Positions 2-57,530 are shown, numbered from the whole stretch's first letter. The stretch: DNA of 59,996 nt, filler included, from Sluysia triapertura (GCA_046118255.1; 5 parts of 5 records of this genome joined end to end with filler, not necessarily neighbours in it), one strand, 5' to 3'. Translations and numbers: made by a program. The notes: generated by a model from the sequence alone, not told the origin.

Positions 2-1357
2 GATGAAATAAATAAAAATCCCCAGTCATTCTTGAGACAACTAACAGATGAAAATGATATAAATAATGATATGAAAACAATAAAGAATAATGATAATGAA
101 ACAATAAAAAATGATAACGAAATAATTGAGAATAATGAGGAACCTGATTACATAGTGAATCTTAATAGAAATCCACATATTGAAACAAGTAACAAGGAAA
201 CCAATACAATTAAAAGAAAAAACGAAGAAGATGTAATAATAGCAACTAATCCTATTAAAAAGAATGTTATTGATTTAACAAAACTAACAGATGAAAACGC
301 AGAAGAAATATTGGAATTAGATACAAAAAATATAGTTTATGCCTTTCTGTCCGTTGCATTTACAAATTTTAGTAAATGTAAGAAACTGTTACCGAAACTA
401 AAAAAATATGAGAATGCTATAATAAAGATATTAAAACAATTAGAAGAGAAATATAAGGATAAAGATGTTAGTGACTTTATAGAAAATGGACAGTATAAAT
501 CAATCATTAATAAGCAACTTAATAAAGGGATAAATAGAGACAGATTTAAGATAATCCTAGCCTACACTATTTTTCAATGTAGTAAAGAAAAAATAATTGA
601 CAAAAATAAAATAAACAAAGTTATAGACTTTATCAATAAGAAAACAAAATTATGGATTGAAGAACAGGGAGGTTGGCGAAATATAATTAAGGAAAAAGAA
701 AATCAGAAAACCGAAGAGACATCGAATTTACTTGCAAATTTATTTGGAAATAGTAATATGTTAAACACAGCCATACCGCGATTAGGAAATTCAACAAACA
801 ATATGTTATTTGTGATAATATTGTTAGCTATGTTTGGAATAAATAAATCTGGTGCGATAAAAGCTTTTGATTGTAATAAACCACAAGTTGGCAGAAAATT
901 TTCATTATTGGACACGGAGGATTGTCCGGAATCTAGGCCGAGTAGGATTCAAATAAAAGAGACTAGAGTTTTTAATGTATATCAAGAAGGAAACTTAATA
1001 ACAGCACTTGTTAGAGAATGTATGGTGAAAAGATCAGTAGCGATATGGTATTGTGGACATAATAGTCATTCTTCTATAATAGAATTACCATACGTATTGA
1101 AACCATTTAAAGTTCTGCCTAATAATCGTAGAGATGCTTTTGAAACTGGCTATCTAGGATTAGTCAAAGGAGATAAATTGAGAGTAAGGAATAACGAAAA
1201 AATAATTTATAATATTAGAACTGCCGGAAATGTACTAACAGATGGAACCTGTGAACAAGGATCTATTGAATATGAAGGGAAAATATATCACAACGTCGTA
1301 GCACAAGAAACATTTGTAGTAAGTTTGAAATCCTTTAACGAGAGTTTTGACATCTAA
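2..1357 (+). CDS. Polyprotein segment 1: N/E-rich linker, Bcl-2-like domain, signal peptide, N-terminal part of chuvirus-like glycoprotein
   Basis: Frame is open from nt 2 (GAT GAA ATA AAT...) to TAA at 1355-1357. The next ORF (ATG 1367) is in the same frame three codons later, so the TAA is an internal nonsense lesion. Confidence 0.85.
   Translation, partial: DEINKNPQSFLRQLTDENDINNDMKTIKNNDNETIKNDNEIIENNEEPDYIVNLNRNPHIETSNKETNTIKRKNEEDVIIATNPIKKNVIDLTKLTDENAEEILELDTKNIVYAFLSVAFTNFSKCKKLLPKLKKYENAIIKILKQLEEKYKDKDVSDFIENGQYKSIINKQLNKGINRDRFKIILAYTIFQCSKEKIIDKNKINKVIDFINKKTKLWIEEQGGWRNIIKEKENQKTEETSNLLANLFGNSNMLNTAIPRLGNSTNNMLFVIILLAMFGINKSGAIKAFDCNKPQVGRKFSLLDTEDCPESRPSRIQIKETRVFNVYQEGNLITALVRECMVKRSVAIWYCGHNSHSSIIELPYVLKPFKVLPNNRRDAFETGYLGLVKGDKLRVRNNEKIIYNIRTAGNVLTDGTCEQGSIEYEGKIYHNVVAQETFVVSLKSFNESFDI
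320..690 (+). CDS. Bcl-2-family-like domain within the polyprotein
   Basis: DTKNIVYAFLSVAF (BH4-like), AIIKILKQLEEKY (BH3-like helix), QLNKGINRDRFKIILAY (BH1-like, cf. LFxDGVNWGRIVALF), VIDFINKKTKLWIEEQGGWRNII (BH2, WIxxxGGW), in the correct order and spacing. Confidence 0.7.
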
Positions 1358-2610
1358 AAAGGTACAATGATGTCCAGATCATTTTGCAGAATGGACCAAA
1401 CAAGCTGCGATACAGGCGAATCTACATTAATTTACGAATTAGATAAATTTCAGTGTCCATTAATATTTTTAAAGCAAATAAAATTTAATTTAGTATCCGG
1501 ATTTGTTTACCAAAATAATGATGAATTACCAATTGAAGAAATAAATAAAAAAGAACAAGTACAGCGTAAAGCGCTAGAACAGAATTTTCATAATTTTCAT
1601 ATCAAAAGGAACCATAATAAGATGTGGAAAGGAAATCACCGAAACTAACTACCAAGGCATTTATCTATCTGAGAAAACAATATTGCAAGCCAAAAAAGGG
1701 ATAGATACCAAGAACATAAAATTAAATAGTTACTTTAATAACAAAATAGACTTTTATTACCATATTGGATTAATGTCTTTAGAGAAAATTTACCAAATTA
1801 TGATTTCTCGAGACTGTCAATTAAACAAAGAAATATTACGCACGAAACTAGCAGTGGCAATCACAAATCCCGATTTGGTAGCACCATTACTACCATTAGA
1901 AGAAGGAGTATTTGTTAGATTAATGGGAGAAGTGTTATATACTTACAAATGCAAAAAGGTAGAAGTTCAGTTAAAACCAGTAACTGAATGTACCAATGAA
2001 TTGCCGATAGTATACGGGAAAATAGAAACTTATTTAGAACCAGTAACAAGGGTAACATTTCCGAGTGACAAGATAAAACCAAAAGTAATGCATTGTTCAA
2101 ACGTAATGGCACCAGAATATAGAATAGATGAAAATTTATGGATTTCACTACCGCATAGAACTCAAGTTAAAGTACCAGAAATCATTGGATTAACGGAACT
2201 AAAGGGAAAACTAAAATTTTTGGCAACTAAAAATATACCTCATTCAGGTATATACACAAATGAAGATATACAAGCGGCTTGGCGAGAAATATTATTCCCT
2301 ATAAAAAGATCAAAAGTGTTGACAGATATAGTAAATAAGGCAACAGTAGAGAACGACGAAAGAATTAACTTTGAATTACTATTAGGTCCGGATCATTTTA
2401 AGAAAGCTGCACAAAATACATTAAAACAAATTTGGGGAACTTTCTAAATTTAGGTCAAGCCTTTTCAGGACTAATATGTATTTATATAATTATTAAGGTA
2501 ATAGCATTGATAATATCTCAAGTCTTTTCTATTGTAGGAATTTATAAAATTTTAGGTCTTACTTGGAAATTAATAATAGGCTGTTTCCCATTCTTGGCAA
2601 AATACTTGCT
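803..2610 (+). pseudogene. Chuvirus-like envelope glycoprotein (env), interrupted by 1 stop and 2 frameshifts in this assembly
   Basis: Signal MLFVIILLAMFGINKSGA, then AFDC..FSLLDTEDC, CGHNSHSS, GNVLTDGTCEQG, CGKEITETNY (frame of ORF 1683), YFNNKIDF, DCQLNKEILRTKLAVAITNPD, GEVLYTYKCKKVEV, CTNELPI, YLEPVTR, SGIYTNEDI..ILFP, WG(N)FLNLG + TM. This series is collinear with the Jingchuvirales G proteins and chuviral EVEs as I know them. Confidence 0.85.
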
Positions 2611-5600
2611 GCATCATCATGCAAATTCCCAAATAAACGCGCTAAGAAAAGAAAGAACACGAACTGAAAATGAAAATATAGCACTGCAAACAATTCAAAA
2701 TAATAAAAATGAAGAAATACAAAGCGATACTCAAAGAAATAAAATTTATCCAATTCCCCCAACGGCACCAACACCGAATGTAATTTACATGATAATATGT
2801 GCAAACAATAATTATAATAATTCTAAAAGACCAATGGCTAATGTCAAGATTAATGGTAGAACAATATTGGCACTCGTGGATACAGGAGCAGTAGCATCGC
2901 TAATTAATGAAAATCAACTAACAGAAAAAGAAAGAGGGAGTCTCGCAAGTCATTTTTCACATTTATCAGGAGTAACCGGAGACGCCATACATATCATTGG
3001 AGTAATGAAAGCTATATGTGAAGTGGGACAAAATAAAGTCGAAGTTAAATTGAGAGTGATGAAGAAATGCCCAGAAGATATGATACTAGGAATGGATATA
3101 CTGTCTCAACTAAAAGGAGTGATACTGGATTTCGATAGTGTTAAATTAAGGGATAGCCATTCAAATAGAACTATTGATGATGATGATGTGTATATCGACG
3201 AACCATTATGGTTATTAAGTAGAACTGAATACATAATGCCAGCAAAAACAAATAGCTCACTGACTGGCCGAATTATGTTCATTGTTTCAGAGACCAACCA
3301 AGAAAAATTGGATATAGGTATTGCATATTCAATCTGTAATAATTGTGAAGGAAGGATACCTGTCAGAATCATAAATTATACAAAAGATAATAAATGGTTA
3401 TTTACAGGTACTAAATTAGGAAGAATTGTGAACTATAGAACACCAACTATTAATATGGTGACGGATACGAAAAACAATACAATAAAACTACAACGGGATA
3501 TACAAGAGGAAGATTATGGAGAAATTCAAATTAATAACAAAAACATAACGAAAAGACAAAAGGAACAACTACATGAGGTTATATATCGATATCCAAGAGC
3601 AATCTCAAAAAATAAATATGATATTGGAGATTCAGTTATTATAAAACATGAGATACCATTAATAGAAGATAAAGTGATTCGAAGAAAACCGTACAGAATC
3701 CCTATTTGTAACCAGAAGGAAATGCAAGACCAAATCGATACTATGAAGAAGGCTGGAGTAATAAGGCCAAGCTTCTCTCCTTTTTCATCACCAGTATTGC
3801 CAGTTAAAAAGAAGGATGGTACAATGCGATTCTGCATAGATTTTAGGGAGTTAAATAAAATAACACGAAAAGATGTATTTCCATTACCACGAATAGATGA
3901 ATTGTTAGATACATTAGGTAACGCTACTTATTTTACAACTTTAGACTTGCAAAGTGGATACTGGCAGATTGAGATAGCAGAAAAGGATAAACACAAAACG
4001 GCTTTCACATGTGGAAACGAATTATACGAATGCGAAAAGATGCCATTTGGTCTAACCGGCGCACCAGCAACATTCCAACGTTGTATGAATTTTGTATTAT
4101 CGGGATGTAAAAACGCCATCGTTTACATAGATGATATCATAATATTTTCCAAGGATTTTAAAACTCACTTAGAAGACACAGATAATATTCTAAAAAGATT
4201 AGAAGTTGCCAGACTTAAAATAAAACCAACAAAATGTGTATGGGCAGAAGAAAAAGTTGAATTCTTAGGACACATAGTATCTAAGGATGGCATTAAGCCA
4301 AATCCAAGAAATATTGAAAAAGTGGTTAAATTCCCGCAACCAGATAATGTTAAAAAGATTCAAAGTTTCTTAGGCTTAGCCAATTATTACAGAAGATTTG
4401 TCAAGAAATTTGCAAAGATTGCGCAACCTCTTAGGAAATTAACAAAGAAAAACGTAGAATTCAAATGGACCGATGAACAAAATAAAGCATTTAAGGAATT
4501 AAAAGAACATCTTACTGCAGAACCAATACTAATTTTTCCTGATGTCAGTAAACCATTTATATTGATAACAGATGACAGTAATTATGCTATTGGCGCAATT
4601 CTGGGACAGAAAGATAAAAATAATCTTGAGTCAGTCATAGCATACGCCAGTCGAAGACTTAACAAAGCGGAGATGAATTATTCAACTGTAGAAAGAGAGT
4701 GTTTAGCAATTGTATACGCATGTAAATTGTTCAGACATTATTTGTTAGGACAAAAGGTTTATTTATATACTGATCATAAACCTTTAACCTATCTGTATAA
4801 TCATAGAGATGAAGTCAGTAGACTTAACCGATGGTTCAATAAATTATCAGAATTTAACTTGGAAATCGTTTATAAACCAGGGAGTTTGAATAACGGAGCT
4901 GATTGTATGTCCAGATTAACAAATGTAGATGATAAAGGAAACATTAATTTGATACAAATTATGTCAATATCGGGAAAAATGCAGAATTCAGAAGAGATTA
5001 TTAGATACCAAAGAAAAGATAAAGAAATTTCAGCTATTCTAGATGGATTGGCTAAAGGTACTTTAAACGAATTACAAGCAAAGAGATTATCCATTATGGA
5101 AGGGATATTAAGATTTAAAAATAACAAAGACGAATGGAAAACTATTGATCCAGAATCATTAATTATACCTATTCTAATACAATTTCATGACGGACAATTA
5201 GGAGGACACTTATCAACAAGGAAAACATTATCTAGAATTAAAAGTAAATATTACTGGGAAAATATGGAATCGGATATCAGAAAATGGTGTAAGGATTGCT
5301 CAATATGCTGTCGACGCAGAAACACTGGACAAAAGACAAAAGTACCATTGAAATCTATGCCAGTACAACTATCACCTATGGAATTTACTGCTATGGACAT
5401 TATGGGTCCTTTTCCAGAAACCATTAATGGAAATAAATATATAATAGTATTTGCGGATTATTTGACTAAATGGCCAGAGGCTTACCCAATGCCTAATCAA
5501 AAGGCCGAAACAGTGGCTCAAATATTAGTAGAAAAAATCATTTACAGATACGGAACTCCTAGAAAATTGTTGACAGATCAAGGAACCAATTTTACTAGCG

Positions 5601-7387
5601 ATGTTATCAAATCAGTGGCTAAAATCTATAACATTCTTAGAATTTATACGTCACCTTACCATCCACAAACCGATGGACTAGTGGAACGTTTTAACCGAAC
5701 TCTTATTAATATGATTCAATCATATGTGAATGACAGACAAACTGACTGGGATTTATATATAGCACCATGTCTTTTCGCTTATAGAAGTTCTGTACATCCA
5801 GCAACTAACTTTACTCCATTTTATCTAATGTACGGCAGACATTCTAACATGCCAGTGGATTTGGAGTGGATACCACCTACTTCACAATATTTAGAGATTC
5901 CAGAATATGTAACAACAATGAGAGAACAGTTACAAGATGCATGGAAGCGAGCAGGTCTCCAAATTAAATACTCTCAGGAAATATATAAGGATACATACAA
6001 CAAGACAGCAAAAGAACATAATTTTAAAGTAGGAGATGAAATATTAATAGACTATCCAATAACCAAACCGGGTCAATCATCCAAGTTACAAAAACCTTTT
6101 AAAGGTCCTTATCTAATAACAAAAGTTACTGATACAAATGTTTTTGTTAAGGATCCTAATAAGACTATTTCTGAAACGTTCGTGGTGCACGTTAACAGAT
6201 GTAAATTAGCACCGAAAGAAGAATATAATTTGAGAAATAGAAAAGTACAAAAATCAAAACTGAAAGTTCTACCAAGACACAAAGATCGAGATAAACCACC
6301 TTCAATTCATGTACTAAGGAATAAACAAGTGATATTTATGATAAATGCCCATGGAAATGACTTGGCTCATATAATGCAAAACGTGCGGTTTAATGGACGA
6401 TGGGTTAGAGCAATTGTAGATACCGGCGCTACGATTACCGTGGTCCATAAAAATTTCCTAACAACTTGGGAATTAATCTTCGTAAATAGACCAAGTCTTG
6501 TAACATACAATGTGAATCAAACGCCTGTAAATATTAATGGAACTCTACTCTGTTATATAGAAGTACTGGGACTATATGTACAAACCTTAGTAAAGGTCTG
6601 GGATAGTAACCCATATGAATTAATATTAGGAATGGATGTTATCAATAAATTAGAAGATATGGTCATTCATAGCAAATATGGATTTATAAAAATACCACCC
6701 GGATCAAATATGATTATACCTCAAATAGTGGCTCCACAAGTTGGTGACGAACTAACCCTATATCAAATGCCAATGTCAAATTCATCATTACAGGTCCCAA
6801 ACTTACCTTTGGCTGATATCGTCGAATCTACACTCCATTTTTCAGATGCATCTTGGGGATCACCATCAACGATTACATCAGAGGAAAACTCGGATTCAGG
6901 AATTAGCTCAAGCTCCGATATTCATAGTACAGTAATGATAATGACCAATGTAAGAAAAAGAACTAGTCCTAGTAAGAATTGTTGTTTTGGGAAAATAAAT
7001 TATTGGCTTTCTATCTTGATTGTAATCTTTTTATCAATTATGACTAGTGTCATGGCAACAGAAACAGCTGAAGAATACAAAAATATGAATATAGCCACAA
7101 ATCATGGCAGGGAACAGAAAATAATAATCACCGATGTGTATAACCAATACTGGAAATTTGAATTTATTTCCAAGAAAATGATTCTACGACATAAATTTGA
7201 AATTTATTGTATCTATTTAAAGCCATTGTTAAAGCCACATTGTCTGCATTATGCTTACAGACCTATGCTAATAACTTTCTCTTTAGACATTCCAAGAAAT
7301 ACGCGAGACATTTGGAAATTTATCAAACAAGTAGATCAATTAAGCAATAAAGAAATAACGAAAATACAGAGTTTTACCCAACTATAA
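2432..7387 (+). CDS. pol: Polyprotein segment: env TM/tail - aspartic protease - RT - RNase H - integrase - second aspartic protease - C-terminal membrane/secreted domain
   Basis: 1651-aa uninterrupted ORF. PR LVDTGA (~2879) and ILGMD; RT FCIDFRELN, LDLQSGYWQ, MPFGL, YIDD (4124-4135); RH TDDS/IAYASR/ERECLA/TDHKPL/NNGADCMSR; IN H-H-CxxC, MDIMGP, TDQG, GLVERFNRTL, GPY (~6104); second protease IVDTGAT (~6419) and LILGMD. Confidence 0.97.
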   Translation: MGNFLNLGQAFSGLICIYIIIKVIALIISQVFSIVGIYKILGLTWKLIIGCFPFLAKYLLHHHANSQINALRKERTRTENENIALQTIQNNKNEEIQSDTQRNKIYPIPPTAPTPNVIYMIICANNNYNNSKRPMANVKINGRTILALVDTGAVASLINENQLTEKERGSLASHFSHLSGVTGDAIHIIGVMKAICEVGQNKVEVKLRVMKKCPEDMILGMDILSQLKGVILDFDSVKLRDSHSNRTIDDDDVYIDEPLWLLSRTEYIMPAKTNSSLTGRIMFIVSETNQEKLDIGIAYSICNNCEGRIPVRIINYTKDNKWLFTGTKLGRIVNYRTPTINMVTDTKNNTIKLQRDIQEEDYGEIQINNKNITKRQKEQLHEVIYRYPRAISKNKYDIGDSVIIKHEIPLIEDKVIRRKPYRIPICNQKEMQDQIDTMKKAGVIRPSFSPFSSPVLPVKKKDGTMRFCIDFRELNKITRKDVFPLPRIDELLDTLGNATYFTTLDLQSGYWQIEIAEKDKHKTAFTCGNELYECEKMPFGLTGAPATFQRCMNFVLSGCKNAIVYIDDIIIFSKDFKTHLEDTDNILKRLEVARLKIKPTKCVWAEEKVEFLGHIVSKDGIKPNPRNIEKVVKFPQPDNVKKIQSFLGLANYYRRFVKKFAKIAQPLRKLTKKNVEFKWTDEQNKAFKELKEHLTAEPILIFPDVSKPFILITDDSNYAIGAILGQKDKNNLESVIAYASRRLNKAEMNYSTVERECLAIVYACKLFRHYLLGQKVYLYTDHKPLTYLYNHRDEVSRLNRWFNKLSEFNLEIVYKPGSLNNGADCMSRLTNVDDKGNINLIQIMSISGKMQNSEEIIRYQRKDKEISAILDGLAKGTLNELQAKRLSIMEGILRFKNNKDEWKTIDPESLIIPILIQFHDGQLGGHLSTRKTLSRIKSKYYWENMESDIRKWCKDCSICCRRRNTGQKTKVPLKSMPVQLSPMEFTAMDIMGPFPETINGNKYIIVFADYLTKWPEAYPMPNQKAETVAQILVEKIIYRYGTPRKLLTDQGTNFTSDVIKSVAKIYNILRIYTSPYHPQTDGLVERFNRTLINMIQSYVNDRQTDWDLYIAPCLFAYRSSVHPATNFTPFYLMYGRHSNMPVDLEWIPPTSQYLEIPEYVTTMREQLQDAWKRAGLQIKYSQEIYKDTYNKTAKEHNFKVGDEILIDYPITKPGQSSKLQKPFKGPYLITKVTDTNVFVKDPNKTISETFVVHVNRCKLAPKEEYNLRNRKVQKSKLKVLPRHKDRDKPPSIHVLRNKQVIFMINAHGNDLAHIMQNVRFNGRWVRAIVDTGATITVVHKNFLTTWELIFVNRPSLVTYNVNQTPVNINGTLLCYIEVLGLYVQTLVKVWDSNPYELILGMDVINKLEDMVIHSKYGFIKIPPGSNMIIPQIVAPQVGDELTLYQMPMSNSSLQVPNLPLADIVESTLHFSDASWGSPSTITSEENSDSGISSSSDIHSTVMIMTNVRKRTSPSKNCCFGKINYWLSILIVIFLSIMTSVMATETAEEYKNMNIATNHGREQKIIITDVYNQYWKFEFISKKMILRHKFEIYCIYLKPLLKPHCLHYAYRPMLITFSLDIPRNTRDIWKFIKQVDQLSNKEITKIQSFTQL

Positions 7388-7531
7388 AAGATGTAACAGA
7401 GCACTCTTATACAACTACAAATCGGAAAAGCAACTTGACTAATTCAACTACAAAAGTTACTACAATGCACTCTTATAACTTTTTTGATAATGTTACTAAT
7501 TTTTACAGTATTATAAATACTTTGGACTGTA

Positions 7532-7942
7532 ATGTACTTGTTTCAAATTCATAAGAAAATACGGGCCCCTACGAATAATAAAAACCGTATGCCGTTAATT
7601 TTAATTACAATGATTACAATAATACACCGCCACGAATATTCGTTTAAGACAGAACACTTTGAATTTTATAATAGCGATAATGAAGTAAAAGTTAAAATAA
7701 TAAACCAAAATATTCATGCCAAGTTTGCTTGTCTGAAACCAGCCAGACTTAATTTCAGCTCGTGGACCATCTATGAAAATTACATAAATAACGACTTAAA
7801 GGGTCCTATTACAATATGTTCGGACATGTTACCTAATGAAGATAGACATTATTACAAAAATTCGTCATTCATCAAAATACTTACACTTTGCTCTAAAAGG
7901 AACATGAAAACACTTAACAATGTTAGAAACATTACGAAATGA
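7532..7942 (+). CDS. Hypothetical accessory protein, possibly secreted
   Basis: 136-aa ORF with a short hydrophobic MPLILITMITII segment, 3 Cys and an NFS sequon; overlaps the next ORF. Confidence 0.4.
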   Translation: MYLFQIHKKIRAPTNNKNRMPLILITMITIIHRHEYSFKTEHFEFYNSDNEVKVKIINQNIHAKFACLKPARLNFSSWTIYENYINNDLKGPITICSDMLPNEDRHYYKNSSFIKILTLCSKRNMKTLNNVRNITK

Positions 7943-8219
7943 TCCTGCTTTAGTAATATTAATAGTGGCAACAATACTATTCATAATCGCTTTAGCTATA
8001 GTGGTATTAACCATCATTATGTTCGTTTCAAACAAGTGTCGATACCCATGTTTACCACATGATAATAATAATGACGACGATGATGCATACACAGTTGCAC
8101 ATCGAAACAATTACTCTCCTCCTCTAGGTATGCCAATATTCCCACCTCCAATTTACGAATATGCTTCGAACAACCAGTCACCATTTATTTATGGGAGTTG
8201 GCACATGACACAACTCTGA
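7920..8219 (+). CDS. Small single-pass membrane protein with PPxY motif
   Basis: Long hydrophobic stretch ALVILIVATILFIIALAIVVLTIIMFV, juxtamembrane CRYPC, acidic patch, PPPIY in the tail. Confidence 0.55.
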   Translation: MLETLRNDPALVILIVATILFIIALAIVVLTIIMFVSNKCRYPCLPHDNNNDDDDAYTVAHRNNYSPPLGMPIFPPPIYEYASNNQSPFIYGSWHMTQL

Positions 8220-9140
8220 TCAACATTACTAGCTTGTATTTGTTTATCATATGTTTCAAATGCATGTATAATAGATTTAAATTCAGAAAACATATACCAC
8301 GAGATTTAACTCCTTGAATATCTGTTACATCAACTCAAAAGGACATTATTGTCGCAGTACAAGCAGATAAATTCAAATTGATCAATCTTTACATAAAATG
8401 TTGTTTAATGGGTTGGTGTCAAAATGAATCGATATTAAACAAAAATATTTTTTATTGATAATCTTATAGAATATCAAATGTTCTACGTTACACTAACTAT
8501 AGAACTCGAACATGATCCTGAACATAATTCAAAAATGATTTTAATAAGGCATTATAGAATTAGAACTCAACTATTTATTTTTAGACAATCACAGAAAATT
8601 ATCGAATTTCCCATGATAATTTATCGATACATTGGCAATATTATACGAGTAGACAACCCACTAGAGAATAATGCGTTAATATTAGCATATACCTTGCATG
8701 GTATCATGAATTATGGATTAGTTTTCCCTAAAGACACTATTCGAATATATGGTTATCCGCATACTAAAATTATGTTCTTTAGTATTTGGATTATACGTAA
8801 TGAGGAAATAAGTAATACGACAGAATTTTGGCCATTCATTAGGAAATTCGACGTACAAGTACCAGTTATTGATAGTCACGAAAACGACTCAGATCTAAAA
8901 GTAATAAATAAGCTTAAGTTCTATAATAATAATGTTACAAATTCATCTTGTGCTACATTTACAAATGTAAGTAAGATAAATGCAGAACATCCAGCTATAG
9001 TAAAGTCTAATAATAATATCATTATAATTATAAATTATGTTTTAATAACAAATCAACTCATAATACTAATGATAAATTTTATAATACCTAAATTTTATTT
9101 GTTCTTTAGGCACAGAGCTCATTTTTTATATAGATTTTAA
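8205..9140 (+). CDS. Hypothetical surface glycoprotein, 5' part decayed; intact ORF 8478-9140
   Basis: MTQL*STLLACICLSYVSNA reads like a broken signal peptide. The 220-aa ORF has clustered N-glycosylation sequons (NTT, NDS, NVT, NSS, NVS) and a hydrophobic C-terminus. Confidence 0.4.
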
Positions 9141-9729
9141 GTATTTTAAGTATTATGAGTATTGCATAATTGACCATATGTAATGGTTCTGCCATTCATG
9201 TTGGGTCATATGTAATATTTATATAATGTTAATTAATTTCAAATCTGTAAAATAATAAAAGTAAGAAGTTAGGTTTAATATTAAATAGTTAATTTTAGGA
9301 TCGTATAAATGACTGTATGTGATGGTCACCATCCATTTCGAGTCATGCACAAACTAAAATCATTACTTAATTGTATAGGTTTAGGTTTTTTAATCTTTAA
9401 AATTACTGTACTATCTAATTATTATCTTATTATATTTTTTTTGTTTACAGTTAGAAAATGTCCTAATCAACAAAGTCCATCCGAAAATACTTTGCTCGTA
9501 CTTCCCCTTGCTTTCACCGATTTCATTTCTTTTGATTTTATGATCTGTTCAATTCCTCTCCTTCCCCACTACCTAGCTGTCCACTGTGTAGGGCTACTAT
9601 TACAGAATGCAATATTTTCTATAAGAAAAAGTTTCGTAGGTCTTATACCTTTTCAGTTAAGTATATCACTGATGATTCGGAGGAGCCCGGTATTGATGTT
9701 TATCAACTGGAAACAACCATGAAGTAAAG

Positions 9730-9764
9730 GAATCTAAGTAGAAACTAAGTAGAATCTAAGTAGA
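9730..9764 (+). repeat. 11-bp tandem repeat x3 (AA[T/A]CTAAGTAG)
   Basis: aatctaagtag aaactaagtag aatctaagtag read directly. Confidence 0.8.
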
Positions 9765-10304
9765 CGCCCTCCTAATTTCTCTAAAACATTAACAAAATCC
9801 CAAAGACGCAATAGACACAGGCATCAATTAAAACATTTCTATAAGGAACAAGAATCGAAGTTATCGCATCCTCGAAAACCTATAAACCCATTCTTAAAAA
9901 GACGAAATTAGGTTTACTTCTTTATAAAATCATATAATTTTAATATATTCTCATGTTGAATTCAATATACAACTAAGCTTACTGATTTATATTTTCTTTT
10001 TATGTATATCTTATTACCTTCATTTTTCCAGTAACTTACAAGCCAGAATATTAAACCATCAGAAAAATTTCTACGTTTACATCGACTGCTATTGCCATGA
10101 AAACATAACCCCTGTCTTTTTCCCTGATTCTGTTTCAACCCCCAATACTTTGAAGTCTGAGCTAGATTTGAATCTTGCGACGCACATATTTTCTTTAAAA
10201 CCCGAAGCATCTTTCATATCGCTGGATGGGCTAGCACAAATCCCCGATTCTATAAACTCTCGATATCTTGTAGTTTTATATAAAACTTTTGTTCTAAAAA
10301 GAAA

Positions 10305-11240
10305 AATGATTATTTTAATCAATTACTAAAGAAATTACTTTAGTTTCACTACTATCCACTGATGAACTAAAACAGCTTCCCTACAGTTGAAAAGTTAATT
10401 CGATTTCTCTTTACTCCATCTTAACGTTGGCTTCATTTCAGCTTTTATGCAGAAATGTAACTCAATATTTAGCAGTTTTATGATAATTGGTGAAATTAAA
10501 AATCAGAAATTGAACAAGACGGAAATTAAAGCTGTCGAAATAAGTCGACTAATTTCGCTGATTAAATATCGACAACAATTTCCTTCTATTTTAATTATCT
10601 AGTGAGATTTGTGGTAAACAATCTCCTTATCTTCTTAATATCATCTAATTAAAATTTAAAATCATTGTTACATTGCTTTTATAATATTAACGTAATTTGT
10701 CAACTTAATTTAAGTATAAAATTATAATAAATTTATTTCTCAGGAGCATCTTTTGTATAATATGTTGTGTGTTAACCGTACGTTGCACATATTTGAATTA
10801 GTATCTTTATAAGTATCAATTTGATATGAACTTTATTAATACTTAGACATCAGAATATATTTAACTTTAGCTTTAAATTATAAAAATGAATTAGAATAAC
10901 TAATTTTTACGTTATTTACGTTGATACGCTTCGCAATACATCATCATTAAAAATACTAATAAAACTCAATAAAGCTAATATAATGAGAAAAACATTTTTC
11001 CTGAGTTATCAAATTAAACAAATAAATTAATTAACAAATGTACTTTAATATTTTAACAATTAAAACCTTGTAAATGATTATTTCTTCATATTTCTCATTA
11101 TTTTGTTTTAATTTAAGTATTTTACATACTTATATTAGTATTAAAATTCATCATAATGTCTCATCTTAATTCTTTAATAATGTTGAACTTATTCTGTTAT
11201 TCTGAGTCTTGACCCTTACATCTATCTTTATCCTTCACTG
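10305..11240 (+). repeat. Dispersed repeat family A, copy 1 (unclassified, coding-like)
   Basis: Shares blocks (ctatccactgatga; atttgtggtaaacaatc; ttttacgttatXtacgttgaXXXgcttcg; ttaacaaatgtactttaatatttt) with 41345-44450 and the reverse complement of 56520-57530. Confidence 0.8.
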
Positions 11241-11869
11241 ATATATATATTTTATTTATCTACACACTAAGTACAAAAAATAAGTATGATACTTAATATT
11301 AAATCAATAATTTAAAACTTATTTTAAACATAGGTTTAAACTAGTAGCAAAATACTTATGCTGTGGTATTTCTAACTCTTAACGCAAAATATTTTTTGTA
11401 ACTTTATAAGCCAATATTTTATCTGAAGATAAGTGTTCTGTAGTTATGGTCTTAACAAATGCTCAAATAATGTAATTTTCTCAAAATTTTAATAATTTAC
11501 TCTTTAGCTTTAACAATTTAATATAAACGAAAATAATAACTTTATTTCACAAAATACAAAAGTTTTGTAGAGATTAAAGCTCAAACAGCGTTTAACTTAA
11601 TAACCACATTATTTTGAGTATATATTACCCTCAATCAATCGGGGACTTAATAATTGAACTAACTGCAATTTTAAGTCAATTTTATATTTTCAACTTCGAA
11701 AGTTGACAAATGATCCAACAATATATAATTTACCAATGCATGAAATTGTAGATAAAATCGAATAATTGTTGTTCGGTGAATGTTGCCCAAGTGTTGAATA
11801 AACTGTTAATTGTGAACGAATTAACGTTGACGCTGCAAATTTGATATAAGTGTACCAAATTCAAAGTGG

Positions 11870-41344: not shown

Positions 41345-44300
41345 TTAAATTATCAAATTAAAACCCAATAACAAAGGAAATTCGGAAGATTTCGATATAT
41401 TCTTTAAAATATCACAAATATACAATGAAAATTCTTTTATAATAATTCACTTCTACTACATAAATAAAACTAATAAAATTCCTTTAACAAAATACCTTCA
41501 ATATATAACTTTAATATCGGTTTTAAAATTATACAAATATTAATAAATTACTATCAGGGTGGCAAAACCCAAATAAATGTTGACGCCCGCATTAACTAAA
41601 ATATAATGAATAAGAAACAGGTTACTAACTCTTTTCCTTATAACCACTTAAATGTTTATTTTAGTTGATTGGTAAAGAATAAGCTTCATTTTCACCGCTA
41701 TCCACAGATGAAATAAATCAGCGTCCGTAAAGCTTTATTGTTTCTTTATTGTTTTTCTCTTATATTTTTCTAATTTTCTGCTGTTTATAAAGCAGTTTTA
41801 TGATCATTTGGGAAACTGAAAATTGGAAATTGGACAAGACTGAAATTGAAACTCTCTGTTTTTTTAGTTGGTGATAAGTCAACCAATTTTACTGATCTAA
41901 TTTCTGCAGCAATTTTCGCCTGCGTCTAATTTCATTATCATTTTAATTATCTAAAAATAATGGAATTTGTGGTAAACAATCCCTTATTTTTCAGTATCAT
42001 TAAATTAAACTATTATTATTAAATTAAACTATCATTATTATAAACTATTATATTAATTCACAATTTATTAACTTAAATTAAGGATAAAATTAATGGAATA
42101 ATAAATTTATTTTATATAGGAATATTTTGCGTAATACGTTGTACGTCAAGTTCAATGTCATATTTGGATTAGTATCTTTATAAACATCAATTTAATATAT
42201 ACTTCATTAATACTTAAACAACGGAACATATTTAACTTTAATTTTTAATTATAAAAACTAATTAAAAGAACTCATTTTTACGTTATCTGCGCCGACGTGC
42301 TTCGTAATACTTCATCATTAAAAGTACTAATAAAACTAATAGTACACCTTGTTTCAAAAGTGTGGGGCACGCCTTATTTTTGGTGTATACAGAAACATAA
42401 TTTATATCATAACAAATTAACAATATTATTTAAAATATGAAACACGAACAGACTATTATTTATTTATAGTTTCCAATTTTAGTACACTTTTATAACTATA
42501 TTGCATTTAGTTAAATAAATTTCTTTTCACAAGTATAGGACATATTATACAAACTTTTATTTAAGAGACTACATATTTTTAGAGATTATATTTTTAGAGA
42601 CTATATTTTATTGATGTTTCTAAGTTTTTCAACACATTTTGGTCATCGAATCAATCATTGTATTAATCATCGAATTAATCTTTACCCAAGCATCCAAAAT
42701 TGCATTTTTAACTCAGATATATTATTATACTGTTTTCCTTGACAGTATCTTAAAGAATAATTAAGATGATAAATTTTCTAATGGATTGTGGTCAGGGTAT
42801 CTTGCCGGCCACTCTAACAAATTTAATCCATCTTCATTTACATATTAAATGTTTTTTTTGATCGATGACAAGGAGCGTTATCCTACCGAAAGCTGGCATT
42901 TATATTTTCTGGAAGTTTGACATACGGAAGTATTACTTCTTTTATCAAATCATAGTACTTAAAGCCATTAAGAGTTGATGGAACCACACATAAAAATAGA
43001 TTTTATCATAAATTATGGCAGCCCATACTATAACTGATCCTTCCCCACAAATTCTCTTAGAAAATTTTTATTTTGAATCCTTTAGATGACTTCATCAGGA
43101 CCATCCAAATTAAATTTCTTCTAATCTGAGAATATATCCTGGTCCAGTGGGTGCGATTATTAATATGATTTTCGTCAAAGTTAATTCTTGCCATTTTATG
43201 AGCATCAATAAGTGGAGGTTTAGCAAGCATTTTAATATTAATTTAAATTTTAATATTTTAAAAATAACAATTTTTAAATAATTTCAGTACTGTTGTTTTA
43301 CTGCATTATGTGAGTTGTAAACAATATTGAATTTTTCGCGTACCTTATTAAACTCATTTTTGCCTATTAGAAAGTGCCTTAGGACAGCCAATTTGTTTCC
43401 ATTGCTTTTTATAACTAATTTGATATCGCATGTCTTGATCTGCTTAGCCTTTTGGCAATAGTTGCACTACATTTTTGAGTTAAAAAATGCAACACTGGAT
43501 GGTTGGGAAAAGATTGAAATAAAAAGTGTAAATACATTGATTAATTAGGTAACTAAAATGTGTTTAGATGTATTAAAAAACTCAGGAACATCAATAAAAT
43601 ATAATCTCTTAAATAAAATGTTTGTATAATGCGTCAAATACTTTTGAAACGAAATTTATTTAACCAAATGCAATATAGTAATAATTAAAAGTGTACTAAA
43701 ATTGGAAACTATAAATAAATAATAGTTTATCCGTGTTTTATTTATTAAATAGTATTGTCAATTTGTTGTGATATAAATTGTATTTATACACCAAAAATAG
43801 AGCGTGTCCTATATTTTTTAAAAATGGTTTACACTAAATCTAATATTATCTTACCCTGAGAAAACATTTTTATTAAGTTATTAAATTAAACAAATTTTAA
43901 TTAACAAATGGACTTTAATATTTTAATAAGTAAAACCTTATAATTGGTTATTTCTTAGTATTTTTTATTCTTTTGTCTTGATTCAAATATTTTATACGCT
44001 TATTTTGTTATTACAATTCATCATAATATCTTATCATAATTCTTCAATGATGTTTATTTTACTTTGTTGTCATGAGCCATGACCCTTATGTTTCTTCTTA
44101 TCCTTCACTAATCCCAACAGTATCTTCATTAGCATCAATTAAATATAAACTTTAGTTATACTTAAGCATATTTTAATTTTAATTTTAGATTATAAAAACT
44201 AATTAAAATAACTAATTTTTACGTTTTCGGCGTCGACGTGCTTCTTAACATTTCAACATTAAGAATACTAATAAAATCCAGTATTTCACACCAATTCTTT

Positions 44301-44460
44301 TGTTATTTCATCATGTGCATATATTTTTCACTAAATGATTTAATTAAAAATTTTTAATTAAATTAATTAACAAATGTACTTTAATATTTTAACAAGTAAG
44401 ACCTTATAAAAGGTTCTTTCTTCGTATCTTTCATTCTTTTATTTTGATTTAAATATTTTA
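41345..44460 (+). repeat. Repeat family A copy 2 (split by Tc1 insertion, plus a partial extra copy at ~44150-44460)
   Basis: Collinear with 10305-11240 and the reverse complement of 56520-57530 on both sides of the transposon. Confidence 0.8.
42343..43831 (-). mobile_element. Tc1/Tc3-like DNA transposon with ~180-bp TIRs, decayed transposase
   Basis: TIRs ~42343-42525 and ~43651-43831, TA at both ends. Minus strand IFSD*KKFNLDGPD, GEGSVIVWA, DNAPCH, EWPARYPDHNPLE. Confidence 0.93.
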
Positions 44461-45289
44461 TACACTTGTTCCACTAACACCGTGTTTTATCTCATTTAGT
44501 TTGTTTAATATTTCTTATTCTATTTTGTAATAAAAGCTATAACTCTTATATTTATCATAGCTTTAACCAAACCCAACACAATACAGATTTTATTAATCAA
44601 GTCAGTCATTTTTAGAAGATGAGGAACTTGGCACGGCTTGTCAAATTTAATTCAGTTTATTTGAATTGTGTGTCACTTGTTAATTATAGATTAAAGGAAT
44701 ACATGTGATTAACGATTTATTATAAAAGTGAGTCGATTTCGGTACTAATTTCACAATGCTGTTACTGCTATCGTAGACCAAGAAAAGATTTTATCTAATG
44801 TGAGGACTAGATTGTTGTAGACTGTTGAACTGTTAAAAAATGAACTATTGAATTAAAGACAGAATAGATAAATTATATCTCAATATTACTATGTTTAATA
44901 ATTTATTTGTTATTTAATGATTATTTATTTTATTTATTTATAAAATGTTATTTATTTTATAAAAAATACTTATTGTTATTATACAAAAATAAGAAGGATT
45001 TAAAAAATAGTTAAAATTAAAATTAAATCTTAAAAAATAGAAAATAAGTATAAAATTAAAATTCTGATTATAAATTTTATTTTCTTGAAGCAAATTCATG
45101 TTTTTTTAAAAAAACAATTATTCAAATTTTATAAACACGCAATATGGCTGTTAGAAATTCTATATATAAAGTCGTTGACTTTTACGGAATTTAATAACTG
45201 ACAATTGCTGAAAATTAGTAATCATCGCACAATCCTTCGAGTTTTTCCATGAAAATGAGTTTATTACTTATAAGTTTCATAATCTTCTC

Positions 45290-53391: not shown

Positions 53392-53489
53392 CAAATCCAA
53401 CGGCTGGCCCTAACTGTTAAGCCCAGTATGTTGGTGGACTCACGTTAAAACGTTTGCTTTATTCTATCTTTATTTTACAAATTCCCACA
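53392..53489 (+). repeat. Repeat family D (putative LTR 3' end), copy 1
   Basis: caaatccaacggctggccctaactgttaagcccagtatgttggtggact...cccaca. Confidence 0.75.
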
Positions 53490-54419
53490 ATATCAATCAA
53501 AACTTCCTGAATTTAGCAAGTCCATAATACAGATTTAGAAGAACTTAATAACGATCATTACAATAAAAAATATAATTCAAATTATAAATATGAAGCTGCC
53601 ATTCAACAGTCATCACAACATTCCAAATGAAAGAGAAAAATTCTAGTTAAAGATATAAATTTATATATAAGCAAGAAAATCATCAAAGTTCATCAAGAAA
53701 CGCAGATAATTATGCAAAATTTTTAAACAATCCTACAAATCAAGTAATTTGTCAAAATTCAAAGTTAACTTATTTTGTTCTGCTTGTAGTTTATGAAAAA
53801 AGTCATTCAACATCTGTGCAAGATAATCAAGTAATTATCTAAAATTTTAATTTTTTCCCAAACTTCTTAAATTTTTATAAATAATATTTTCGTGTTTAAA
53901 TTTAAAATTTTGCGCGTTTACGTAATAACTAAAAGTAACGAGTTGTTAATTTTCGAAGTAATTATAAACCAATCTAATGCATTTGTTAAGCACGTAATTA
54001 TTGATGCATTCAGAAATTTAATAAACGTCCCACCTATCACATTAAATCTCAAATCCAATATTCACTGAATAAACCAGAAAAGCTTTGATTTGCCTTTATT
54101 AAAATATGGAAATAATGAATAAAACAAACATTTGTGTATGTTCAGAATTACAAAATACGGACTAAACGTTTAGAATTTATTGTGTCTTTATTTTTTTATT
54201 TTGTCTTGTGTCGGCTACTAGAACGAAAAATAACCTACTAATACTATATAACCCATCAGAAAATTATGCATTTTTTAAAGTTATTATGAATCTAACGTTA
54301 CTCGTTTTGATTTACCGGTATCACCATCCAAATCACTTATTTGCGGATTTAGATTTTAAATAAAAAGGAACTTATATAATACTAACTTCTTGGGTATTAT
54401 CTTTTCTATCTTTTATCTA

Positions 54420-54516
54420 CAAATCCAATGGCCGGCCATAACTGGTAAGCCCAGTACGTTGGTGGACTAACTTTAAAATCTTTCTTTATTCTAGTATTCT
54501 ACTTTAAATTCTCACA
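54420..54516 (+). repeat. Repeat family D (putative LTR 3' end), copy 2
   Basis: caaatccaatggccggccataactggtaagcccagtacgttggtggact...ctcaca. Confidence 0.75.
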
Positions 54517-54751
54517 TATTAATAATAAGGAAATCTCAAGAAATTTATATTATGCACTCAGTATAACACAAGGGAGATATAAAAATTGATAAATATATTG
54601 CGAAGAATTAATCTCATTTAATTCTTTAAGTAATAATTTAACAATGGATGTTGCGTGAAACTATTATAAGTTTCGAAATTGATTACAAAATTTTATTTTT
54701 CGTTGATTTTACGTGGATACTTATTGTATCAGTAATGTCGAATTTTAATAA

Positions 54752-55545
54752 TTGTTTTCAATCGAGGACCTAAAAGGTGATCCTCATTCAGCAGAATATC
54801 TATCGAACTTTTCTGCTACACCAATGTTGCAAGAAGGAGTATATTTTGATCGCCAATTGTCCGGAATTTCACGACTAGTTCTTGGTCCAAACCTGAGAAT
54901 TATTCACAATACAACGCACTCAGGATCCAAATCTACGTGCGAAGTTTTAAAATCCAAAGTGATTTGGCCCTATATGCGAAAAGATATTAACAATCATGCC
55001 TAACTTGCCATGCGGTGAAAACACACAAGCATACCAAACCAGAAATCCTCAATTTTCCAACCGCTTAACTCTTTGATACAATTCACATGGACATCGTCAG
55101 TCCTTTATCAAATTCCAAAGGATATACTTACATCTTGACAATCATAGACCGATATAGTCGTTGGCCGGAAGCGTTTTCTATGCGCTGCATATCTACTGAA
55201 ACAATAACTAACATTCTTGTAAAGCATTGGTTTGGTGTGCCCAAGAGTATAATTACCGATCAGGGCAAACAGTTCGAATTTGAACTTTTCAACAGTTTAT
55301 TAATACGCCTAGGAAGTTCCAGATTATCCGCAATTCAAATGGAATGATAGAGCACTTTCACCGTACGCTAAAAGTTCACTGCGGAAACTATCAATCAAAC
55401 ATAATTGGTCAGATGCATTGTCCCTGATACTACTTGGTTGGAGGAATATTCCACATTCATCTACCGGATATTCCCCAGCTCAAATCGTGTTTGGTACAAA
55501 TACAAGATTACCACATGAACTATTCGAAACTTCGCTGCCAAAATA
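54752..55545 (+). mobile_element. Ty3/gypsy integrase remnant
   Basis: IHNTTHSG..VIWPYMRKDI, HMDIVSPL..YILTIIDRYSRWPEA..FGVPKSIITDQGKQF, NGMIEHFHRTLK, TGYSPAQIVFG; stops and frameshifts. Confidence 0.9.
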
Positions 55546-56172
55546 ATACGTTTTCTCTAGGCATTTAAGAGAATATTTCAGCGAATTAAACATAATAATT
55601 CACCACGTGTATACATATGTGATGACTAAGTTACATTTGTAATTTGTACATTGATATTTGTATTAACACGCATTGATATGACTAAAATAATATTATTGAC
55701 TAAACTAATATTATTGATTTTATATTTGTATGTAATATTAAATATTTATTGATGTATTAATTTTTGATTTATTTTCATATGTTTATTATTTTCAAATCTA
55801 AAGAATATTTTCAAAGGAATTAATTTTAATTATTTTATGGTAAGATTATTTTTAAATTATTAAAAATTATAAAATTACATGTAATTAAAAAATTAAAATC
55901 ATTTGTTTCAAATAAATAAAATATTAGTTTTGTTTTTAATAATATAATTTTCGATTTAATTTTTCTTGATTTAAATCAATTTATATAGTTTTAAAATAAA
56001 GAAAAATCACCTGTCTGTTGAATTTTCCTATTTCAAAGGATCTACGCAAAATTACATTTAAATTTTTAAATAAATTACTAATTATTAAATTAATACATAA
56101 CATTCGAAACAGTTAGCATAAATTCAAAAAATCTGATAAATTTTGATTTGACCTCCATTACTTTTACTTTAC

Positions 56173-56275
56173 CAAATCCAATGGCTGGCCCTCGCTGGTA
56201 AGTCCAGTAGGTGGTGAACTCACAGCTTTAATTTAACTTTTATTTTATCCTATATTAACTTTAACGTTTCTCACA
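56173..56275 (+). repeat. Repeat family D (putative LTR 3' end), copy 3
   Basis: caaatccaatggctggccctcgctggtaagtccagtaggtggtgaact...ctcaca. The upstream block tttcaaaggatctacgcaaaat (56031) also matches ~53190. Confidence 0.75.
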
Positions 56276-56519
56276 CATACCACGAAGTTTAGCCAGACCT
56301 AGTGAGTATGTCTGGTTGATCGTAGAAAACCCTCATTTGTTGCAGCTAAGATATACCGGCCCACATAAAGTAATAAATATAAATAATGAAAACATAAATA
56401 TAAATAATATAAATATAAATAATTTAAATATAAATAATAAATATAAAATACATTTGTTAATTAAATTAATTAAAATTAATTAATTTGATGAGTCAATAAA
56501 AATGTTTGCTTCTGATATA

Positions 56520-57530
56520 ATGATATTAGATTTAGTGTATAATGTTGAGTTTCATTAGTATTTTTAATGGTGAAGTATTGCGAAGCACGTCAACGTAGAT
56601 AACGTAAAAATTAGTTTTTTTGATTAGTTTTAATAATTTAAAATCAAAATTAAATATGTTCTGATGTTTGAATATTAATAAAGTATATATCAAATTGATG
56701 TTTATGTTATTAAACTTGACATACGACGTACGGTTGACGCACAACTTATTATACAAAAGATTCCCATGAGAAATAAATTTATTATTTCATTAATTTTTTC
56801 TTTAAATCAAATTAATAAATTGCGCATTGATATAATAACAATATAATAATGATTTTAAATTTTAATTTAATGATATCGAAAAGATAATGGGATTGTTTAC
56901 CACAAATCCCATTATCTTTAGATAATTAAAATGATAATAAAATTGGACACAGACAGAAATTGCTATCGAAATTTAATCAGTAAATGTGGTCGGCTTATCA
57001 GCGACTAAAAAAGAAGAGAGAGCTTTAATTTCCGTTCAATTTCTACTTTTTCAATTTCCCAAATTATCAAAAAACTGCTGTATAAGCAGTCGTATTTTTG
57101 CAAAAAATTAAGCATAAAACGGAAATAGAGTCATGGTAACGAAAGAAGAAAAACTGTAGGGACATTGCTTCAAATCATCAGTGGATAACAGTGTAATTGA
57201 AGCTTACTCTTTAGAAATCAGCTAAAATAAAACATTATATGAATATGGGAACATGTGTTAGTGATGTGTCTGTTATTGACTATATTTTGTATTAATATGG
57301 GCGTCAAAATATTTCTTAGATAAGTTATGTAAACCCTGGTAGTGATTTGTTAATATTAAAAGATTTATAATTTGAGGTTTATAAACAAAAACGATTTATT
57401 ATTAAAGAATAATTTGTATTGTTAGTATTATAATGAATATTTGTTGTAATCTTGTGATAATATTTGAGAATATATCGAGATTCTGAATTTATTTAGTTAT
57501 TGAGTTTTAATTTAATAATTTAAAAAATAA
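56520..57530 (-). repeat. Repeat family A copy 3 (inverted)
   Basis: Reverse complement is collinear with 41345-42340 and retains the uninterrupted TA insertion site. Confidence 0.8.

Follow-up and report, generated by a model that had tools for sequence, protein, structure and literature searches.

The window analysed here is a 59,996-nt stretch of DNA from Sluysia triapertura (GCA_046118255.1), filler included, in which five parts of five records are joined end to end; its first contig (1–13808) starts inside a retroelement. A preliminary description had read 857–2610 as a chuvirus-like glycoprotein belonging to a Ty3/gypsy element. We found this glycoprotein (hereafter G) within a longer series of retroelement features, in which PR denotes protease, RT reverse transcriptase, RH RNase H and IN integrase:

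2..760, plus strand: polyprotein upstream of G, comprising an acidic linker and then a Bcl-2-like domain (about 350–690, with a BH2-like WIEEQGGW motif), from Pfam and a homologue profile
800..856, plus strand: predicted internal signal peptide of G, placed by its position immediately upstream of AFDC
857..2440, plus strand: ectodomain of a class III fusion glycoprotein of gB/chuvirus type, broken, from Pfam, a sister-copy model and fold searches
2456..2610, plus strand: predicted transmembrane anchor of G and membrane-proximal tail, in the protease frame (hydrophobic segment 2456–2554; PF24664 positions 533–648)
2825..3125, plus strand: retroviral-type aspartic protease 1 (DTGA; PF00077, E 9.6e-12)
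3179..3440, plus strand: spacer kept among relatives at the position of the Burro dUTPase-like domain (aligns with four homologues)
3800..4860, plus strand: RT (YIDD) and RH (PF00078, E 4.5e-35; PF17917, E 4.6e-38)
5150..6200, plus strand: IN with zinc finger, core and C-terminal part (PF17921, E 1.1e-18; PF00665, E 1.3e-12)
6380..6650, plus strand: second aspartic protease domain, after IN in the same open frame (PF13975, E 6.7e-9)
6995..9140, plus strand: string of signal-peptide/ectodomain/transmembrane cassettes, one with a PPPIY tail, broken here (hydrophobic segments 6995–7045, 7938–8039 and 9018–9074)
9380..9920, plus strand: decayed RING-finger accessory ORF, limits approximate, from a DNA match to sister copy L057
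10030..10280, plus strand: start of a 440-codon orphan ORF; copies depart from the window at 10196–10275 and go on in frame

All three natural pieces of G matched PF24664 (Monjiviricetes_fusion, 653 profile positions) above the curated cut-off in a Pfam profile search, piece 1 over positions 9–207 (E 2.7e-22), piece 2 over 265–544 (E 1.6e-46) and piece 3 over 533–648 (E 1.3e-12), and these matches lie far beyond what chance would give. Five of the six motifs listed in the preliminary description were found as written, starting at nucleotides 863 (AFDC), 1052 (CGHNSHSS), 1812 (DCQLNKEIL), 1926 (GEVLYTYKC) and 2244 (SGIYT). The sixth, WGxFLxxG, occurs in no single frame, its halves being read in frame 3 (2427) and frame 2 (2441) on either side of a frame change. 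That change, near 2440, is the last of three breaks in the window copy, the others being an in-frame stop at 1355–1357 and a frame change near 1585 with approximately 15 codons missing. With these three breaks, the suggestion of a potentially infectious element fails for the window copy, which is a dead insertion. One cysteine conserved in the family is also absent from it, so that the cysteine pattern, previously called full-length, was slightly overstated. At 800–856 the window was below the hydropathy threshold used, and a hydrophobic segment occupied the same place in all four intact homologues.

The fold was predicted on L004, a sister copy within this genome, which is 95–97% identical to the window over its 539-aa ectodomain and whose one stop was read as X. 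We relied on a model built from a 125-row alignment (mean pLDDT 89.5, pTM 0.73); an earlier model, with 6 rows aligned, was of low quality (pLDDT 48.6), yet its matches were already class III fusogens. Against the PDB, the top matches listed for the L004 model were all herpesvirus gB (best E 1.5e-12), with 403 residues aligned to VZV gB at Z 11.5 and an rmsd of 8.6 Å, and against predicted viral structures Tacheng tick virus 4 G ranked first (E 4.6e-38), the best matches being glycoproteins of chuvirus and chu-like kind. Since the predicted fold of L004 is of class III and of gB/chuvirus type, the similarity to chuviral or gB-like glycoproteins on which the earlier reading had been made to depend is present. 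Taken with the PF24664 matches, the model identifies 857–2610 as a class III fusion glycoprotein of chuvirus/gB type, and the chuvirus-like assignment is borne out.

The assignment to Ty3/gypsy was likewise upheld by the domain order. Positions 2402–7387 form a single open frame of 1661 codons that carries PR, RT, RH and IN in gypsy order and then the second protease, and G runs in frame into PR in several copies. A search of the same genome returned at least 143 matches to the element (142 scored of 3768 candidates). Among these copies, L004 runs through the Bcl-2-like domain and G into PR in a single frame that is interrupted by one stop. L033 has an uninterrupted stretch of 581 aa between the BH2 motif and SGIY, and L012 has one of 654 aa that leads out of G into PR. 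The contig begins downstream of the 5' LTR, the gag gene and the probable ubiquitin-like domain; other copies show these parts, a Gag with a CCHC knuckle being found upstream in L033 and L021. The Bcl-2-like domain matched Pfam Bcl-2 weakly, under the cut-off (E 0.008), and a homologue-based profile matched Bcl-xL in the PDB (E 4e-4), all 60 of the 60 matches listed being Bcl-2-family chains; the ubiquitin-like profile matched mostly FAT10, DSK2, Elongin B and hPLIC-2, weakly (E only 0.03–0.9). The order of the element is gag, ubiquitin-like (on these weak matches), Bcl-2-like, G, PR, RT, RH, IN and second PR.

Among the loci fetched from this fragmented assembly, no single natural copy has an open frame that reaches from gag to integrase, the stretch between gag and the Bcl-2-like domain was observed as broken pieces only, and no intact full copy occurs, the fetched contigs all being shorter than 17 kb. 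The element length of approximately 17 kb is summed from different copies. In three database relatives (P0008, P0014 and P0020), Gag, G, PR, RT and IN all lie within single ORFs. We consider it very probable that the glycoprotein stretch is the broken env of a high-copy Ty3/gypsy LTR element, in frame with the Bcl-2-like domain and the protease and likely translated as part of one Gag-Env-Pol polyprotein. This placement of G in one polyprotein, after the Bcl-2-like domain and before the protease, had been missed in the preliminary description. P0014 is filed as a protein of a bacterial MAG and is probably a mis-binned animal contig. In another locus of the host genome (L025, 300–2028 and 3734–6101), an extra ubiquitin-like/Bcl-2-like/G start lies upstream of the main one; it is more diverged (67% identical to the window, versus 80% for the main start) and is possibly a nested relative.

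The Ty3/gypsy hallmarks (LTRs, tRNA primer site, polypurine tract and gag) are present in sister copies, outside the window. Copies match the window up to about 10280, where another repeat cuts the window element and removes its 3' LTR, and then extend approximately 2.5 kb further. A purine tract stands before the final 1.3 kb of the element, and these 1.3 kb are found again ahead of gag in other copies, giving LTR-like repeats at both ends, each end taken from different copies and none lying in the window. The 5'-side repeat is followed by the primer site TGGCGCCCGAATTGGGAC, which occurs 191 times without mismatch in the genome (its reversed control, 0 times) and agrees with the 3' end of a tRNA-Lys(UUU)-like gene of the host. 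Among tRNA-like loci with an exact match to the primer site, ARAGORN called none of the five tested and Rfam called one of three, weakly (E 0.005). Of the three contig-level sequencing runs that cover the element, the best may derive from the source sample and hence gives no independent support; the sequencing-run search listed no RNA run containing it.

Selection on G was estimated by comparing unjoined window pieces pairwise with 48 loci of the same genome and taking medians over copies with dS > 0.4. The median dN/dS was 0.05 for the C-terminal piece of G (20 copies above the dS threshold, 33 aligned), 0.06 for the N-terminal one (15 of 22 copies), 0.04 for RT (3 of 7 copies), 0.10 for the Bcl-2-like domain (n = 11), 0.11 for integrase (n = 5) and 0.10 for the second protease (3 copies), all of these ratios being approximate because dS is high and partly saturated. 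Purifying selection on G is as strong as on RT, at an approximate dN/dS of 0.05. Such low values indicate that G was still working during the spread of the family; most of the insertions examined have decayed since, a stop codon lying within the aligned C-terminal piece in 22 of 33 copies.

Elements of this layout are already in print, and novelty is not supported for the association: a gypsy env between gag and pol has been published for planarians (PMC6431247, PMC13524379). Nine flatworm elements with gB-type env are described in PMC13524379 (Chary and Hayashi 2026), which gives a GAG-ENV-POL order for Platyhelminthes, links gB-type env to Chuviridae G and argues for a pre-Cambrian association. 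Its Smed_errantivirus_1–6 (cysteine class C1a) resemble the present family in Ty3/gypsy pol, gB-type env, gag-env-pol order and, probably, flatworm host, and span 14.5–18.0 kb against the stitched length of about 17 kb here. Comparing the Smed_errantivirus_1 row of the supplement with L004 by eye, we found all eight domain I–II cysteines of class C1a and the motifs in common, one of these cysteines being the one missing from the window copy. The Smed elements are intact by the inclusion rule of that catalogue, in contrast to the window copy with its three breaks in G, and in the parts of the paper compared they have no assigned primer tRNA, whereas the present family points to tRNA-Lys(UUU)-like. 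The words Bcl and Burro do not occur in the main text of PMC13524379.

Burro/GYPSM1, the giant planarian gypsy elements reviewed in section 7 of PMC6431247 (Arkhipova and Yushenova 2019, citing Grohme 2018 and Jurka 2007), share with the present family an env in frame between a BCL2-like domain and PR, as well as accessory ORFs. According to that review, the Burro env has matches among mononegavirus fusion glycoproteins, and upstream of BCL2 lies a ubiquitin-like domain, a position for which we obtained only the weak matches given above. Burro exceeds 30 kb and has a 4,873-aa ORF1, whereas the present element has a shorter polyprotein front end. None of the MATH, BIR, AIR1, Smc or ankyrin domains of Burro was found in the upstream ORFs scanned, which are fragments of broken copies, and where Burro has a dUTPase-like domain between PR and RT, the conserved spacer of the present family gave no dUTPase match in Pfam or the PDB. 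The element resembles Burro in how it works, but because the size and extra domains of Burro are missing, we file the family, on a comparison by description, with the smaller flatworm gag-env-pol elements. The finding of a chuvirus-like G in a gypsy element thus adds one more decayed family to a published layout; what is added here is the constraint on G, equal to that on RT during spread, the tRNA-Lys primer site and the 3' cargo. Troyka elements (PMC12440569) were considered and rejected, since as described there they lack env and have different termini.

This cargo begins with the second protease and continues with at least three cassettes, which are broken in the window and have longer open frames in sister copies (L054 6711–7859, L061 3157–4419). 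The cassettes matched no Pfam family, and the third ectodomain gave no usable match in the ESM Atlas (best 0.78). Immediately before the 3' LTR lie the RING ORF, which has a basic tail and is represented in L057 (4487–5002) by a match to zf-RING_2 (E 2.1e-6), and the 440-aa orphan ORF (L061 871–2196), which has a DTGA-like motif and likewise gave no usable ESM Atlas match (best 0.83). The second protease, the post-integrase cassettes and the RING gene go unmentioned in section 7 of PMC6431247 and in the sections of PMC13524379 compared, although figures and supplements may cover them and our literature search was aimed elsewhere; on that footing, a post-integrase cargo of tandem membrane cassettes, second protease and RING gene looks undescribed. 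Relatives P0008, P0013, P0014 and P0019 likewise have hydrophobic cassettes behind the integrase. In P0001, P0003, P0007, P0012 and P0013 each polyprotein has between two and five DTG motifs of protease-like type, and repeated protease duplication seems typical of this lineage.

The origin of G was addressed with unrooted trees, after G rows covering less than 75% of the G profile had been dropped (136 of 160 kept). In the FastTree tree (135 G domains), a single branch (SH-like 99) took in every one of the 17 polyprotein-borne G sequences along with two short unplaced fragments. In the IQ-TREE tree of 39 rows all 16 polyprotein-borne sequences likewise grouped together (SH-aLRT 97), with the four named chuviruses outside that branch and interleaved with insect-genome proteins. 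Naming was sparse: seven of the 135 rows were stand-alone G with an informative name (four chuviruses and three insect-genome proteins), and word-based protein searches returned few named viral proteins (5, 9 and 4 matches). The sample had no outgroup from rhabdo-, borna- or nyamivirus G or gB. Within these limits, G was not nested inside chuvirus G diversity in the unrooted trees, and the trees, being unrooted and sparsely named, give no direction of transfer. When G and RT trees were compared, as the preliminary description had proposed, the seven elements available, whose relatives in the RT tree were all unnamed, gave one supported split common to both trees, the rest being mostly unresolved. 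The polyprotein-borne branch and this shared split fit an old association between G and the element that may have been kept vertically, in agreement with the part of the earlier reading that called it ancient. Also in the IQ-TREE tree, Hardyhead chuvirus G shared a branch (SH-aLRT 99) with two G proteins from beetle genomes, and the tick and shrew chuvirus G lay elsewhere. Should the beetle proteins be retroelement env, this grouping would be a hint of exchange between viral and element G.

The same trees bear on the proposed capture of G from a negative-strand RNA virus. A fairly recent, independent capture from a chuvirus-like virus would follow the route proposed for Anakin (Dezordi 2020, PMC7642597), a mosquito LTR element with the same glycoprotein family, which differs in being BEL/Pao, whereas the element here is gypsy with G inside the polyprotein upstream of pol. 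Consistent with such a capture, the nearest named viral sequences and structures are chuvirus and chu-like G, and a Platyhelminthes Jingchuvirales genome appears in PMC10084718. The Jingchuvirales glycoproteins compared (those of Tacheng tick virus 4, Wufeng shrew chuvirus 2, Hardyhead chuvirus and Fushun oxya chuvirus 1) share the Pfam family and fold, but they are stand-alone ORFs on the opposite side of the supported branch and are 20–26% identical to L004 G, against 26–41% for its six RT-carrying relatives. The eight domain I–II cysteines recur by eye in the Schmidtea elements, and a general scan of ORFs around G revealed neither a chuvirus L nor a chuvirus N gene. Because G groups with polyprotein-borne G and apart from the four named chuviruses, a recent chuvirus capture is unsupported, and we regard it as very unlikely. 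Less credible still, and in our view next to impossible, is a non-retroviral EVE that happened to insert next to a gypsy pol, or a fusogen gene domesticated by the host. It draws on PMC10084718, where LTR-element fragments are reported often to flank chuvirus G fragments without true capture. In arthropods, that paper found no clear gypsy capture. Here, however, G keeps a fixed position in over 100 copies of the family and shares the PR frame in several of them, which refutes the reading as a lone EVE or domesticated fusogen; that most copies are broken also speaks against this reading.

For the preferred reading, an env translated within a Gag-Env-Pol polyprotein, a mechanism can be proposed from the pattern of hydrophobic segments and general knowledge of viral polyproteins. 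The Gag, ubiquitin-like and Bcl-2-like domains would be synthesised in the cytosol, and the predicted internal signal peptide before AFDC would then direct the G ectodomain into the ER lumen and be cut by signal peptidase, the leftover peptide possibly anchoring the Bcl-2-like domain in the membrane. The G anchor (2456–2554) would bring the chain back to the cytosol, where the element protease could release RT, RH and IN, and putative G trimers on budding particles might fuse with neighbouring, germ-line or stem cells. The main rival to this account holds that G is kept without infectious particles, in an intracellular or cell-contact role such as an ER assembly anchor or fusion of neighbouring cells, and we judge it a possible though unlikely alternative. 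The obligate in-frame fusion to Gag and Pol, which differs from canonical env genes, is compatible with such a role, and we found no particle or infectivity data. Against it stand the complete class III ectodomain, kept under a constraint like that on RT, and the PPxY-like motif in a downstream cassette. PPxY-like motifs are a budding late-domain pattern. The entry mechanism of elements with gB-type env is called unknown in PMC13524379, a further point on the side of the non-particle role. A more far-reaching and speculative extension, which we hold to be rather improbable, would see in the family a multi-glycoprotein enveloped flatworm retrovirus, in which the post-integrase membrane proteins might trigger or target the gB-type fusogen, as the partners of herpes gB do, the Bcl-2-like, ubiquitin-like and RING modules might disarm host cell death and degradation, and such elements could be the reservoir that supplied chuviruses with their G. 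If the cassettes do partner the fusogen, this would bear on the question raised in PMC13524379 of how retroelements with gB only enter cells.

The host is likely a flatworm, as suggested by one of the four COX1 loci read, by low G+C (19–34% in the window contigs) and by the planarian relatives of the element. That COX1 locus is AT-rich and has AAA at conserved Asn sites, as in the flatworm/echinoderm code; the other three (L065–L068 being all four) are of fish type, 80–83% identical to each other, and represent food or contamination in the assembly. The repeat that truncates the element at about 10280 belongs to a dispersed family present at 10310–11242, 41786–44470 and 56444–57230, whose inverted arms at 42393–42558 and 43616–43785 may mark a DNA transposon. 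Farther along the window, at 53392–56212, a G+C-richer repeat of 40 nt occurs three times, the copies being 85–88% alike.
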